NCBI GenBank assembly: GCA_030295235.1
Contig: AP026158.1
Span: 434,001-477,489 of the forward strand
Length of the DNA: 43,489 nt
Source: Fistulifera solaris
Lineage: Eukaryota
Direction of reading: 5' to 3'
Shown here: positions 2,020 through 28,123 of the stretch, piece after piece
Numbering within the stretch: position 1 is the stretch's first letter
How the letters are laid out: the number at the start of each line of letters is the position of its first letter
Notes under the pieces: generated by a model
Seen by the model: the letters and a program-made list of their open reading frames with translations, nothing else
Databases searched by the model: none
Told to the model about the DNA's origin: nothing
Translations under genes and position numbers: made by a program

Positions 2020-4290
2020 TGGATGGGATTAGAGAGACAACGTAAAAGAAGAGAGATAGTAAGTACACGGAAGGAATAAAATTGCTGTCGGTGATAACGA
2101 CGAAAATGAGAAAAGACGAATGAAAAGCGTTTGTCGGCAAATTTTTGTGCACGTTTCTCGTGTCCAATTTCATTCTTTAAGGAAAGAAATATATAATGCA
2201 GTAGGGCTGTGATGCCTCAGCTGCGCCGTTTTAAAACTCAAAGAACAGCGTTCTGGATCGTTTTACGATCACCATCAGTTCTTGCGTTCATCGGGGCAAA
2301 CGTGATCGACATTAACGGTGTTCTTGCTGATTACGATCACAAACAGAAGTACCAGTATCGCACGCAATAATTTGGCGTTCCCATCCTTAAACCGTTTCAC
2401 GATAAGAAACGTTGTCATTGGCTACACTTTGTGTTTATAGCTTGAAATTATAGTCATGGAGTTAAGGACAGGTATTTCGAGATCCTTACATCCTCACAAA
2501 TCAAATCTTGATGTGGCCATCGACTACTGCAAATAGGACTAGGATTTCTGTTGGGGACCACGGCAACCTCAATCAGCAACGATTAAGCCCTTTTATGATC
2601 ACCATGCCGCAGTGAAAACCCCAATAATCAGCCTATGTCCTGCAAATAAATTCTACTTAGAACTAGGACGAAGATCAGATGCCATTGACATTTTCCAACC
2701 TCAAGGTCGCGAAACTGACTGTGGACTGTGGACTGTGAAATAGCAAAAAAGCAACTACCCAGTGCAAAAAAAGGCCCAACGCAAACCCAGCGACTTTTTG
2801 TGCCAGCACGACATCACGAAATTTGAGCATCCAACCAAAGGAGAACGGCTTGTGGTCGCCTTTTTGTTGAAAACGAATAATATTTCCTTTCGTGTTATGG
2901 CTCACCACCAACATTAACATAGAAATACGATCAAACAACCACAGCAAGAGACTTTCTGCAAGAGACTTGCTGAGTATCGAGATCCAGGGCTTCATTCTTG
3001 CCTCGCAATTGCCTCGCAAGGAAGTTTGAATGAAGTCGCAAAATAAACAGAGATGATACGTAAATGATCACTCAACTCCGTACTAGTATTGAACGCTCTA
3101 GTTGCAGGGAGCGAAAGATAGGAAATGGGAGAAGGATCGAGTAAAGAGTTCTAGTCATTATTCCTTCAAGCGACGACCTCATTCTGCTATGGAAAGTACT
3201 GAATGCTGCACGAATTTATCAAGAAGTTACACATTAAGGGCTCTTTGAAAGCGAAGCGGTAGTCGGCAAAACAATGGTTGTTTTTAAAGCGAAAAAGCGC
3301 AGCAGTTTACTCAAAAAATGAGACTTAGCCGTGTGCTTCTGATGTACAACATGCCATGGTGGCGTCATCAAATGGACTTGGAGAGCAACTGATTGATTTT
3401 CATCGTTCACGCACGAAAACGCCAACAAGTAGTTTAACTGTATATTCATTGAGAAACTGCATTCGTGTTAATTTTGATTTATAAAATCGCTGATTCAGCG
3501 TCATTGATCGTCATTCCCTCGCAAACATTTTCGAGATGAGAGCTCCAGTTATTTGGGAATGAGCGAGTTAGAGATGCTAGACGCTTAACGATTTACGATG
3601 CGTTATTATGCCTTTTTCAAGAATCAGTTCGTCGCAACCGAATATAGCGTGGAATTGGAAGTGCTGCGAAAAAGCTCAGCGCAATGCACAAGGTCTTTGG
3701 TCAAAGATGGAAGGCCCTACCTCTTGATACAGTATGCGGCAATGCGGTTTTCGCTGCGCACTGAGCAATTTCGCTCTTATATAACTCTTAACTCCAACAA
3801 TCTAGAAACACAAACAAGCCACAAGCCACTGATTATTGTCCATTGCATATTGCCAACCAATAACCAATGACGACTGACGACTGACGACCATTGTACTTTT
3901 TTTATGGAGAGTGGAGAGAGTTCATCGCAAAGAATTCTCGATGACTTTGTCATTTCCCTGTGTTTGTTGTTATGTACACGGAAGACAGAAGTCGCACGGC
4001 GCACGGCAACATTCTGAAGTCGTAGTTTAGGTATTTGGTATTTGCCTCCAACGCGAGTTGAATGACGAATGGCGACGCCAGTGAAAATTGATGTACAAGG
4101 TATGAGACACTGCATAGCAGCGGTCATAAGTCGTTACGAACGATGACGTGACTTTGGACAAATCTGGTACTTGTTGCTTTATAGTACAAAGACCTCTTGC
4201 GAATATCGCGACTTTGCGAAAAACTACCTAGAAGCCAGCGAGCACATTTCGATCTAGTCAAAGTCTCATTCTTTGAAAGCACACAAGACC

Positions 4291-22700: not shown

Positions 22701-25700
22701 ACGACGGTCTCGTGAAATCTGTGCCACCCCAGTAATCTCCAGAGACAAAATAGCGACAACGCTGTTGCAGCGAGATCTTTCGAAACAAGCATGTGTTATT
22801 GGAATGCTGAACAAGAAGACTCAGGTAATTAAAGGTACTTACATTGATCCTCTTCCAGAGTACGCCGTGAAAGGAAATCGGTACCTGATGTTGCGGATTA
22901 CACACTGCACAAAGGGCCATTCAGCACCGTCTGGCCAATTACGCCATGGGGCAGTCAAGGAAGGGAACTGTAAGATCGTGTCTTTGTGGACCCTTGGTAT
23001 GTAAACAATACTGTCGCCAACTTGCGGGGTATAGCTTTTTCGTCCACCATAGGATGAATTGCTTTCAAGTCGACGGACCCAAGATCGACTAATCGATACG
23101 CTCCTTGCGTCGGGTACACGAAAGAAGTGCGAGTCATAATCACGAATGAAAGGGCCGGAAGGTTCGTTGTTAGTACTCATGTACTCTTCCAAACCAACCT
23201 CAGAATCCGAATCATCATCGTCAATAAATCGTCGGCGTCTTGGACGACCACCAGCAGCAGGGGAATCAGGCATTACCAACGAGTCCTCCATGTCATCGTC
23301 GTTATCCGAATCCGAGGACTCATGCAGACGTCTGCCGGCAGTTTCATTGTACTCGAACTCTTCGTCATCGGTATCAGCCATCTCACTGTCATCGTCATGA
23401 CGGTTTGATGACGCTTCTTCCCTCAAAATGTCTGTATAGTCTCTCCATCGGTAGTTGTCTGACATACGTCGTGGGCTTCTCGGTCTTGTTTCGGCATCTG
23501 ATATTGCTGAATTAAATCCAAGTGTCAGTTTTCCACCATCCGTGTCTTCGCCAATCATTACCGTGGTTTCTGGATCCAACCGAGCAATAACATTGCCATG
23601 AACAGGCATCTCTGTTTCGCTCATTTCTGCAGCAATTTGCCTCCAGTACTGTCGACCGCACCTTGCCTCAACTTCTGAACTAGGCAAAGGGCCAGTGTTA
23701 CCTCGCAGGAGGTCGTTTACAAAAGCGGCCCATGGCGTGCCTGCATTGGAACATCGGACGCCACGAGGAGCCAAATGAGGGGGTTGCTCCGATCCGCGCT
23801 CGACGCAATAGCCATTTTGATCATACAGTAGATCATAGTAGTCGTTGGAAAAATACTGCTCCTTCATCCATGGCAAGTTTTTGCCATCGGTTTCATCTTT
23901 CTGCCCAACGGAATCGAAGATCGACACGCGACCACTATCGTCCGTCAGAACTAGTAGTGCCCCATCTGGCGAGAAGGAACCATCTAAATATCCACTGGGC
24001 TTCCCTTTGTCGCGGGCGTCGATGGGACCAAACTCTAACGTATTTTTGTGCTGGAAAACACACTCACCGATGGTCACATTCCAAACCTTTACTCGTCCAT
24101 CGGCCCCAGCAGAGCAAAAGATATCTGACTCCGAAGGATGCGGTACGAGAACAGGGCACTGCATCGAGTGCCCCCCAGAAATAGCAACTAAGCAGTTACC
24201 ACTTCTACTATCCCAAACACAAATGAACTGACTTCCCGGAACAATGGCGCTTCCGCTCAGCTTCTCTAGCTCAGATTGCGATGTAATGATAGTCTCGTCT
24301 TGCGCCGTCCAGCAGGCCACATCACAAGAAATACGCGAAGCAGCAGGAGCGCGTCGACGTGCGGGTGCTGATTCAGAACGACGAGGGTTGGAAAGTTGTA
24401 TTAGAATATGCGATGTCTTGCGGTTAGCCAAAAGACGAGGATAAGAAGGATCAACGCTCCAGGACCATACCCGTACGACGCCCTCCTTTTGACTTGCACT
24501 AAGCAGGCGATCTCCTTTATAAGAATACGATAAATCAGTAATAGCACTATGATGTGCTTTGAGTTCCAGCAGTAGTTCTCCTGGAACAGAGAGAAGGCAA
24601 ATTAGCAATGTTTGGCTCTCTTTCGCCGACAAAACCGATGTTCACTTGCCTTGATCTCGAAGATTTGAAGAGGCTCGTATGACTGGTGACTTATTTTCGA
24701 TGAGTTCCAATGCAGGATCAGCTGTTTCTTTCCAAATGCGACATGTCCCATCATCAGAACCTGTAGCAAAATGTAAGCCGAAGGGGCATTTCGCGACACA
24801 AAGAACTTTGATGAAGGACGATCGTGTCCTTCCTTCACTCTGGTTTCCATGCGGTAATTTACAAAGCAGATCCACGCCTTCATCGAGATTATCGTTGAAT
24901 ACAAAGTCACCGGTCGATTCTTCATTTGCGTTGGCATGGTTGTTCTCCAGCACATTCAACCCGTTACCTTCAGGCAGGGGTGGCAATGGAATTTGAGCCA
25001 ACGCTACCTGAGTGTTTTCCGACGACTCGAGTAGCTGGTCCGGCGCTGCCTGGATCGCCCCCTGGCCTTGCGTGTCTTGTAGTGGAGCTCGTAGCATTAT
25101 CCCAGCCTTCGATTCATCCGTGTTCGTGGCAGTCTTCTCATTACTCTGATGATATTCAAGGCGCTTTCCCACCCATTTTCCGTATCTTTTCAGCGCAGCT
25201 TGACGAATATCCCAACACCGCGCCCATCCGTCACTTCCAGCCGTCACTAATCGATAAGGACTGGTCCAAATGACTGTATTCGTTCCTCCGGCATGACCTC
25301 GCAAAATAGCTACAGGACTTCCGTCGACCAATCCCCAAACGCGGCAATCACCGTCTTCCGACGCGGTCGCTAGAAACGCATTGTCCGGAGACACATCAAT
25401 GTTGTTGATTACTCCCGCATGACCACGAAGTGTGCACACCAAGAATGCGCCGCGAATTTTAGAATACGAATTTTCGGGTACATTTGGGTGGAGAGTAGGA
25501 TCCACGCAAAAGACGCGTACGAGATAATCATCTGCGCCGGTACAAAAATAGCGTCCCGTTTTGTCAAACTGCAAACAATATACAGGGTAGGACAAGTGCG
25601 TGTTAATGGTTGCCGCGTGATCGAGTCTATGTTGCAAAAGAATTTTCGAGAAGGAATCATCCCGCTTCGACCAAGCTCGACGCAGAATGCGCGAAAACAA

Positions 25701-26554
25701 CGAACTCGGTTTAGACGGCGTTTGAAAGTTGCGATGCACATGCTGGAACTGCTGAAAAGCTTTTTCCGCCGTGCACTTCAATTCCTGCAACCTGATACGA
25801 TCGGTTTGCTGCGTAGCCATCAATTGTTGCAAGGGACGTTCAAGTTGCGACAATACTCGTTCACAGGCTTTCCGTTTTTCCTCTTGTTCGACATCGTCTG
25901 AGCAAGGATTTTGTTCCAGTCTACGCAGAGTATTTGTTTGAAAAGTCACCGATTGCTGCATCGTCACGATCTGTTTTTCGTCGCCTTTGATTTTGTCACG
26001 TAAATCCAAATAGGCTTTCATGCCGGATTCAGCCGCCGTCTGTATTTGCTGTGCTTTCGGATGTTCGGGAACTTGAAACGGCCCCGTGACAACTTCAACG
26101 ACTTGTTCGGCTTGTTGAATACTGCCAGTCGTTCGTCCCTCTCTCGATTGTCGTTGCTGCTCTGCTGCTTGCTCCAGCAGATTCACCGACGCTTGCCCCG
26201 TTTCTTCCAACAATCGTGCGGACTGCACTAAATGCGACAGCTGCTGCGGAGGACACGCCCGTTGCAAGCGAGCCTGTGAAAAAGAAGCGGATTGCAACGA
26301 CGACGATGATGTCTGCAATGATAGAAAGCATACTTGTATGTGAGTAGCATTTCTCATGTATCTTTATTGAAAAACGCACAAATAAATAATAAACAACGTA
26401 CCAAAGCCGTCGGACCGAATCCTCCCACCGCAGCAAATGCTTCCGAAAGCTCTCGAGCAGCCCTTTGAATGCGTTCTTGAGCAAAGGAATCAGAAACAGT
26501 CACACTCGACAGCCAATGCGTTACAAGAAAGGGAAGCTCATCATTTGATTGCAT
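19793..26554 (-). CDS. Bromodomain and WD-repeat protein (BRWD/PHIP-like)
   Basis: Multi-exon gene: N-terminal ELPFLVTHWL, WD40 repeats (VYCLQFDKTGRYFCTGADD, LRGHAGVI, EQYFSNDY), YTPQVGDSIVY Tudor-like region, two bromodomains (FADPVN..Y...VEVPMCL..NCIKYN; IKEPMDF..NCILFN). Introns include 26401-26313, 24649-24581 (GC-AG), 20237-20172 and 19938-19875; one frameshift near 21780-21800. Confidence 0.92.
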
Positions 26555-27302: not shown

Positions 27303-28123
27303 ATGAATCGCTGCTTTCCTTTGATACAAACAATAGCACGTCCACTACGACGCACCATATCCACAACTCCGCCTCGGTTTGACAAAAGAAGCATCAAAGT
27401 GCCCAGCATGGGTGATTCCATCACGGAGGTACGATTGATTGTTGCTACTGTTGTTGCTGTATACTTTATCTTATATACGAAAAACACCTTCTCGCTTCTT
27501 TTAGGGAACGATTGTCGAATGGACGGCACAAGTCGGTCAGGCGGTTCAGGCAGACGACGTCATCGCGCTAGTAGAGACTGATAAAGTGACCGTCGAAATC
27601 AAAGCTGAGATCAGTGGTGTTATTACAAAGCACTTTGGTGCCATGTAAGTGAGACTCACTAGGATTACTGTATGGTCTGTGTACGACGGTAAATTTCACA
27701 CTCCACTGGTTTTCGTTCACTTCAGCGATGAAACGGTCGAAGTAGGTGCGGATTTGTACGAGATTGATACAGATGCCTCTGCATCAGTATCGACGGAAGG
27801 CATTTCAAAGTAGAGTCGTCGAAAGCCACAAATGAGAACGACACTCCCGTGGCGGCCAGTGCCTCGGCCCCTCCGCTAAAAGTACCGACAGCGAAGCCCA
27901 CCTCGCGAACGCCCTCTATTCACTTTTTGGGAAGGGAAGGATGGGCTACCCGACTCAGTGGCGGATCTAAGCCAAGCCCACCGCCAAAACCCGTTTACAT
28001 ACCGCCCTCTTATGGGCGACCTAAATTACGCAAGAAGAGATCGATGCATTGATTACGGGAGGGGCCGACTTAGCTCCGTCTGTGTTGGACTATTCCAGCG
28101 GGGCCAAGTTTCGGCCGTTTTGA
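27303..28123 (+). CDS. Mitochondrial lipoyl-domain protein with C-terminal KGD4/MRPS36-like segment
   Basis: Exons 27303-27428, 27505-27644, 27726-28123. Leader MNRCFPLIQTIARPLRRTIST; lipoyl domain VPSMGDSITEGTIVEW...ETDKVTVEI; then RTPSIHFLGREGW and YGRPKxTQEEIDALITGGA. Needs two single-base corrections (near 27808 and 28025). Confidence 0.8.

Follow-up and report, generated by a model that had tools for sequence, protein, structure and literature searches.

What does a lipoyl domain do on a protein that has no acyltransferase core behind it and ends instead in two short motifs of the kind found in KGD4/MRPS36, the adaptor of the 2-oxoglutarate dehydrogenase complex (OGDH)? The question is raised by a gene on the forward strand (27303-28123) of a 43,489-nucleotide stretch of Fistulifera solaris DNA (assembly GCA_030295235.1, contig AP026158.1, positions 434,001 to 477,489), the whole of which is called the window throughout. 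An earlier note, made from the letters of this DNA, had proposed that the gene encodes a lipoylated KGD4, comparable in its architecture to E3BP (protein X, PDHX) of the pyruvate dehydrogenase complex (PDH). Those points of the proposal that lent themselves to checking held up. As argued below, the product is quite likely a mitochondrial fusion of an E2o-type lipoyl domain with a KGD4/MRPS36 adaptor, and would be a fourth subunit of OGDH that resembles E3BP but has no core domain.

The gene is a three-exon nuclear gene with a 100% match to the public record FisN_40Lh021. Its corrected product has 221 residues and comprises a basic leader, an E2o-type lipoyl domain, an Ala/Pro/Ser linker and two conserved motifs. 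The start codon, the lysine codon of the lipoyl domain and the last position of the stop codon all lie where the earlier note had put them. Splicing was read from contigs of public runs (X1 to X4), which are only presumed to be RNA, with no RNA source on record. The layout of the gene is as follows:

27303-27305, forward strand: start codon ATG.
27303-27407, forward strand: leader of 35 residues, a presumed mitochondrial presequence judging from its composition (6 Arg and 2 Lys against 1 Asp).
27303-27428, forward strand: exon 1, coding for the 35-residue leader and the start of the lipoyl domain (up to KVPSMGDSITE).
27429-27504, forward strand: intron 1, 76 nucleotides, GT..AG, placed after MGDSITE and spliced out in contigs of X3 and X4.
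27505-27644, forward strand: exon 2.
27645-27725, forward strand: intron 2, 81 nucleotides, GT..AG, placed inside the lipoyl domain before DETVEVG and spliced out in contigs of X2, X3 and X4.
From 27726, forward strand: exon 3.
28121-28123, forward strand: stop codon TGA, which ends the open frame 18 residues past the GGA motif.

As printed in the window, the gene does not read through. The lipoyl frame ends at a TAG (27811-27813), a middle frame that carries RTPSIHFLGREGW and, further on, PPSYGRPK ends at a TGA (28050-28052), and a third frame carries TQEEIDALITGGADLAPSVLDYSSGAKFRPF up to the stop at 28121-28123. Taken at face value, an in-frame TAG and a second break would suggest a decaying or truncated copy of E2o, or a stand-alone lipoyl protein ending at 27811 whose likeness to KGD4 further downstream is due to chance, and a Pfam scan of the protein itself, in which the lipoyl domain alone is found, would be in accord with this. 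However, both breaks are one-base homopolymer undercalls of the window sequence. Public contigs of X1, X2 and X3 have an extra C behind 27805, and the TAG is thus false because one C is missing next to 27805/27806; likewise, the TGA is false because one T is missing behind 28025, where one contig of X1 has an extra T. Beyond these two insertions, the contigs do not differ from the window. The two indels suspected in the earlier note were in this way both confirmed and repaired. In addition, a spliced contig of X3 continues for 46 nucleotides beyond the false TAG, and a search with the middle frame returned FisN_40Lh021 (P0001, 186 residues, 100% identical) and its homeologue FisN_40Hh021 (P0002, 220 residues), which are 91% identical to each other and are open through both break sites, where they read GISKVESSK and RPKFTQEE. 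Tiny introns were considered as another way of repairing the frame and were rejected, since no candidate GT..AG piece is long enough and what the contigs have is inserted bases. The contigs of X2 to X4 have no coverage of 27884-28027, and no single spliced contig joins the lipoyl exons to the C-terminal motif. The gene is intact and spliced, and since the motifs downstream of the breaks are also invariant across more than 100 relatives and share one open frame with the lipoyl domain in nine loci, hardly any credence can be given to a truncated E2o copy or a lone lipoyl protein.

Three observations on the records and contigs themselves may be added. The deposited model FisN_40Lh021 begins at Met36, without the 35-residue leader that P0002 and many relatives have, and is thus probably truncated at its N-terminus. 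Contig 11 of X4 changes at window position 27804 from the sequence of the gene to one resembling the other homeologue (PKVESKATNE), and both homeologous copies appear to be present in that run. Other genes of the same assembly may carry similar false frameshifts.

Behind the leader, the earlier note had recognized an E2o-like lipoyl domain, an assignment that is borne out by the searches described here. The domain and the linker that follows it are located as follows:

27390-27765, forward strand: lipoyl domain of the E2o type, spread over exons 1 to 3 and split by both introns.
27583-27585, forward strand: codon AAA of the putative lipoyl lysine (K69 of the 221-residue product), in VETDKVTVEIK.
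27766-27905, forward strand: flexible linker of about 47 residues, rich in Ala, Pro, Ser and Thr, which holds the first window error.

Against a Pfam cut-off of 22.1 bits for Biotin_lipoyl (PF00364), residues 30-102 of P0002 score 59.7 bits and P0001 scores 49.5 bits. The best single-domain match in the PDB is an E2o chain (9njt_A, 79.6 bits), and the domain is 43-59% identical to lipoyl domains of E2o. The lysine of the TDK motif is kept in 16 of 16 loci with a lipoyl domain (L001-L016) and in 8 of 8 proteins that cover the site. A maximum-likelihood tree of 69 lipoyl domains over 78 columns, which is short, midpoint-rooted and to be read with care, unites the 11 domains of the fused family in a single clade (support 97/86) that is nested (98/94) among the lipoyl domains of E2o proteins without a PSBD, including Aureococcus P0159 and the MMETSP sequences P0166 and P0176; the E2o domains of Ectocarpus and Pythium fall outside the group that holds this clade. 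Apart from Biotin_lipoyl, the Pfam scan gives nothing: neither the 2-oxoacid_dh catalytic domain (PF00198) nor a PSBD (PF02817) is found in P0001 or P0002. With no PF00198 domain and with a stop at 28121-28123 that leaves no room for one, the predicted product cannot be an acyltransferase, in agreement with the earlier note, which had remarked on the missing E2 core. An AlphaFold2 monomer of P0002 computed with alignment A2 has a mean pLDDT of 60.7, with values of 63-89 in the tail, where two short helices are predicted, and poor block means of 43-54 in the lipoyl domain, because few rows of the alignment cover it.

A lipoyl domain need not be a catalytic arm. This one might be a regulatory or redox-sensing module, a decoy for E1o docking, or a relay or donor of lipoyl groups, with the tail merely anchoring it, and it is true that E2o retains a lipoyl domain of its own, so that an extra arm is not obviously needed. 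However, the lysine hairpin is strictly kept, the domain has remained close to those of E2o, and the lipoyl domain of E3BP, its analogue in PDH, is catalytically competent. A role other than that of an arm is therefore considered unlikely.

The second half of the argument concerns the tail, which carries the following elements:

27906-27944, forward strand: N-motif RTPSIHFLGREGW, of KGD4 type and presumed to bind E3; it aligns to the same motif in the stand-alone locus L018.
27996-28066, forward strand: C-motif YIPPSYGRPKFTQEEIDALITGGA, of KGD4 type and presumed to dock on the core; it holds the second window error.
28067-28123, forward strand: family-specific C-terminal extension DLAPSVLDYSSGAKFRPF and stop; its P, S, G, A and F are near-invariant in alignment A2.

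In an alignment of 133 sequences, RTPSIHFLGR (27906-27935) and PPSYGRPK-TQEEIDALITGGA (28002-28066) sit on invariant or near-invariant columns, and are thus far beyond what chance would produce. In the smaller alignment A1, made of 20 tails, the invariant residues are R, P, S, I, F, G, G and W for the N-motif and G, R, A, L and G for the C-motif. When the 133 proteins were scanned member by member, PF10937 (Kgd4-YMR31) was the commonest Pfam family, with matches in 53 of them at E≤10 (best E 0.0035) against 14 for the next family, which, like the families ranking after it, seems to owe its matches to low complexity. At E≤0.05, PF10937 was matched by 19 of 131 members, whose scores of 15.7-19.4 bits stay below the cut-off of 22; all 19 matches end at the last position of the profile (116/116), on the EE..AL..GG pattern of the C-motif, and several run from 12 to 116 and hence take in the N-motif as well.

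The link to KGD4 is strengthened by divergent metagenome loci found with a profile of A1, which code for small proteins of this kind without a partner domain:

L017:4001-4258, forward strand: stand-alone KGD4-like gene.
L018:3935-4270, forward strand: stand-alone KGD4-like gene.
L019:1426-1863, forward strand: stand-alone KGD4-like gene.

In the sequence upstream of the three, over distances of up to 4 kb, no lipoyl domain was found. Their N-motif is the same in kind (GRTPSIHFLGKSGW) and their C-motif ends in DEIDAVVLGGA, with a longer spacer between the two and no C-terminal extension; L018, from which DLAPSVLDYSSGAKFRPF is missing, stops soon after GGA. Two of them exceed the gathering score of PF10937 (L018 with 28.4 bits, L019 with 25.7), and L018 aligns by hhalign to the tail profile A1 with 98.3% probability and an E value of 1.2e-14, over 59 columns that include both motifs. 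Of the 30 Atlas feature matches of L018, 26 belong to the set whose displayed clusters (MRPS36/RT36) carry PF10937, with a score of 0.91. In L018, a likely first exon begins at 3755 (MMLRLTSFAKVVGVAK), and a GTAAGT intron comes next. The yeast and animal KGD4 motifs quoted in the earlier note agree with the way in which they are generally described. By profile similarity and through these intermediates, the tail is very probably homologous to KGD4/MRPS36, with a score that stays short of the curated threshold of PF10937.

How widespread is the fusion? When a middle piece of 72 residues was compared by phmmer with 1.84 billion representatives, 17 of them matched at E≤0.001, and profile A1 gave 342 matches at E≤10 among 3625 candidates; the best 120 of these 342, which are those listed, all have E values of about 1e-24 or below and none has a precomputed Pfam domain. 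Most A1 matches are fragments of the last exon, with their first residues at the conserved position of intron 2 (DETVEVGxxLYEIDT). A simple pattern recognized what is left of the last lipoyl strand in 110 of the 133 proteins, and because the remaining 23 begin inside this strand or in the linker, none of the 133 is demonstrably free of a lipoyl domain. At the DNA level, A1 picked up 20 metagenome loci, 16 of which have a lipoyl domain upstream of the tail; in 9 of the 20 the lysine motif, the N-motif and the C-motif share one uninterrupted frame, and the fusion is therefore not an artefact of gene models. Intron 1 is at the same position in L001, L003, L004, L005, L006 and L010, and the leader is kept in the homeologue P0002 and in L007, L011, L013 and L015. 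Judged from these sequences, the fusion is conserved. The organisms with names in which it was found are F. solaris and Aureococcus anophagefferens, the latter in a mis-fused model of 920 residues (P0182).

This Aureococcus model joins an alpha-glucuronidase-like and a methyltransferase-like region to a lipoyl domain and a KGD4 C-motif (FFGRPEITEAEMLAL), and its linker reads as a run of Arg and Pro, probably in the wrong frame, which suggests that P0182 is a mis-merged and mis-framed model of the pelagophyte orthologue. Among the metagenome loci, L009, L012 and L014 (forward strand) form a sub-branch in which the N- and C-motifs are set much further apart by a Ser/Thr-rich spacer and the C-terminal extension after GGA is longer (GGKIVTAGPR..W). 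In the databases, the fused proteins are labelled as E2 acyltransferases, as the earlier note had foreseen, and these names are misleading.

As to how the two modules came together, the earlier note had considered that KGD4 might itself derive from an E2. A descent of KGD4 from the N-terminus of E2o, with the fused form as the ancestral one, is disfavoured by the tree, in which the lipoyl clade is nested within algal E2o, and by the existence of stand-alone KGD4 forms with the same N-motif. The same two observations favour, as the simpler reading, a secondary fusion in which a copy of the E2o lipoyl domain would have been joined to a pre-existing KGD4.

What would such a protein do? The published work on KGD4 offers a template. 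Kgd4 is needed to keep E3 on OGDH in yeast and mouse, and its residues 1-68 pull down Lpd1 and its residues 69-123 pull down Kgd1-Kgd2 (PMC4214781). Eukaryotic E2o has no PSBD, and the proposal is that MRPS36 stands in for it by contacting E2o with its C-terminus and E3 with its N-terminus (PMC9974300); the KGD4 protein of the fungus Chaetomium thermophilum has been named E3BPo (PMC10203282). The situation in stramenopiles fits this template in that the E2o proteins of Aureococcus (P0159), Ectocarpus (P0169) and MMETSP (P0166 and P0176) have PF00198 and their own lipoyl domain (PF00364) and no PF02817.

The likeness of the fused protein to KGD4/Ymr31/MRPS36 extends to the order of the two short conserved motifs and the variable spacer between them, to the C-motif, whose closing E-E-x-x-x-(I/L)-x-x-GG falls on the end of the Pfam profile, to a probable mitochondrial leader and, by analogy, to an expected position between E3 and an E2o core that has no PSBD. 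It differs in that a whole lipoyl domain of the E2o type and about 47 linker residues stand ahead of the adaptor, in that about 18 conserved residues (LAPxVxxxSxGAxF) follow GG, and in scoring under the PF10937 cut-off. The KGD4 proteins described in two reports have 123-130 residues and form a single module with no other domain (PMC4214781, PMC10203282). The product of 221 residues with its PF00364 domain departs from this small single-module form (about 100-130 residues), which is typical of KGD4/MRPS36. With E3BP it would share a plan, by analogy, rather than an ancestry: both are non-catalytic, and both run from a lipoyl domain on a flexible linker to an E3-binding element and on to an element that attaches to the core. 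However, the fused protein has neither the PSBD (PF02817) with which E3BP binds E3 nor the inactive 2-oxoacid_dh domain by which E3BP is joined to the core; two short KGD4-type peptides take their place, and homology to E3BP is confined to the lipoyl domain. That domain in turn is what relates the fused protein to E2o (DLST/Kgd2), whose lipoyl domains are its closest matches and surround it in the tree, whereas the PF00198 domain and the DHR motif of E2o are absent from it.

A model of the complex is consistent with docking on E2o. The 81-residue tail modelled on a trimer of the E2o catalytic domain (residues 205-448 of P0166, in three copies) scored 0.79 (runs 0.78-0.80), against 0.00 for the best of three controls; as many as 51 of 78 solved complexes, but just 2 of 108 mismatched pairs, attain that mark. 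The runs share at least 58% of contacts, with a partner pLDDT of at least 51. The tail residues that touch the core (40-41, 43-50, 54-55, 57-63 and 65-69) read YI, PTYGRPKF, EI, ALITGGA and LAPSV; they bridge two E2o subunits in the model, and the N-motif makes no contact.

These elements can be assembled into a mechanism. The basic leader would direct the protein into mitochondria, and K69 in its ETDK hairpin would, given its strict conservation, be lipoylated. The C-motif (Y-x-P-P-x-YGRP-x-F-T-x-E-E-x-x-A-L-x-x-GGA) together with LAPxV would dock on the catalytic trimer of E2o, as modelled and in line with its homology to the C-terminus of Kgd4, to which the E1-E2 core binds, and the N-motif (R-T/V-PSI-x-FLGKEGW) would hold an E3 dimer, by homology to the N-terminus of Kgd4 that binds Lpd1. 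The lipoyl domain, tethered by about 47 linker residues immediately ahead of the E3 binder, could then act as an extra swinging arm beside E3. Such an arm would take its load from E1o, give it up at E2o and be re-oxidised by E3, or would relay reducing equivalents from the arms of E2o to E3.

Several observations weigh against this picture. The second indel rests on a single contig of X1 and on the protein records. Neither P0001 nor P0002 matches PF10937 in a Pfam scan, even at E≤10, and no member of the fused family reaches its gathering score of 22 bits; the earlier note had itself named the lack of a KGD4 profile match as speaking against its proposal, and, strictly read, the window's own protein has none. 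Its claim of a KGD4 tail is thus carried by relatives, in that L018 and L019 score above the PF10937 cut-off and L018 aligns to the tail. A search of the PDB with the tail profile gave no match at E≤10, an Atlas feature search with the tail of P0002 gave nothing usable, and the structural rows of the Atlas for this tail were all under the bar, including a PF10937 cluster at a TM of 0.29. As for the docking model, its E2o is a stand-in from an MMETSP transcriptome rather than that of F. solaris, it includes no E1o, and the method makes no use of alignments and is calibrated neither for disordered peptides nor for multi-copy jobs. In yeast, Kgd4 did not co-migrate with Kgd2 when Kgd1 was absent (PMC4214781), and for this reason docking on E2o alone may be incomplete. 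Finally, a study of OGDH from pig heart saw no KGD4 (PMC11436768), so that the stoichiometry of the adaptor is debated even in animals.

That the fused protein belongs to OGDH rather than to another complex is likewise something that we infer. E3 is common to the pyruvate, branched-chain, 2-oxoadipate and 2-oxoglutarate dehydrogenase complexes, and an adaptor that holds it might serve another of these, or several. In accord with this, the N-motif is also present on a core protein of the E2p/E3BP type described below and is hence not specific to OGDH, and docking of the C-motif was run against E2o only. Nevertheless, the lipoyl domain is of the E2o type, the modelled interface with E2o stands clear of its controls, and KGD4/MRPS36 is described as a component of OGDH (PMC4214781, PMC9974300), which makes service to a different complex, or to several without specificity for OGDH, a decidedly unlikely alternative.

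The core protein in question is encoded at a single metagenome locus (L020:3995-4942, forward strand) and has 316 residues. It starts with M-LPTAIRLA, continues with RVPSIQFLGREGW, which has all eight invariant residues of the N-motif, and then passes through an Ala/Pro/Thr linker into a core of the E2p/E3BP type (PF00198, 251.9 bits; 213.7 bits against mammalian E2p and 210 bits against human protein X), in which the catalytic DHR reads DRR and is thus dead. It has no lipoyl domain and no PSBD, and the upstream gene ends about 340 nucleotides before its ATG. From its sequence, it looks like an E3BP-type core protein that would bind E3 via the KGD4 motif. The N-motif stands at the place of the E3-binding domain of E3BP, and a core domain takes the place of the C-motif, a layout that fits, by analogy, an N-motif that binds E3 and a C-motif that docks on the core. 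It is tempting to go one step further and to suppose that diatoms and related algae use the N-motif (R-T/V-PSI-x-FLG-K/R-EGW) as a portable peptide for docking E3, which would replace the PSBD in more than one complex, combined in OGDH with a core-docking peptide and an active lipoyl arm and set in a PDH-type complex on an inactive E2p-like core. This broader idea is tentative, and we regard it as rather doubtful at present.

Elsewhere in the window, on the reverse strand and unrelated to the fused gene, two abutting open frames in the same frame (22842-26363), both with WD40 repeats, probably belong to a single large WD40 gene that is divided by an intron or else by an in-frame stop at 24642-24644.

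To our knowledge, the combination of a lipoyl arm with an adaptor was known before for PDH only, and experiments on KGD4/MRPS36 have been confined to fungi and animals, where it is a bare peptide adaptor of 100-130 residues. In the literature, judged mostly on titles and the starts of abstracts, no description was found of a KGD4 that bears a lipoyl domain, nor of KGD4 in algae or stramenopiles, although the 304 MRPS36 homologues of one study (PMC9974300) might include stramenopile members. The finding extends a known adaptor rather than introducing a new kind of system, and the architecture is unexpected for OGDH and has good computational support.

The attachment of E3 to eukaryotic OGDH is still debated, and this is where the fused protein may matter most. 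The lipoyl fusion, which is conserved and, judging from the spliced contigs, expressed, extends the KGD4 family to diatoms, an ecologically major algal lineage, and to at least one pelagophyte gene model (Aureococcus P0182). It also corrects a systematic mis-annotation, in that public records name these proteins E2 acyltransferases, and it points to an under-detection by Pfam, since the fused branch lies just under the cut-off of PF10937 and is missed by the profile. The layout of the domains argues for association with OGDH and would put the adaptor where substrates are handed over, and OGDH would gain, by a different route, the logic of a lipoyl arm joined to an E3 binder that PDH has through E3BP. 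A clean genetic test is possible in a tractable diatom, where the functions of adaptor and arm could be separated. If the broader idea of a portable E3-docking peptide held true, the fused protein would be a genuine 'E3BP of OGDH', active in turnover and not only in assembly, and a natural experiment in which evolution arrived on two occasions, along different molecular routes, at an adaptor that bears a swinging arm.

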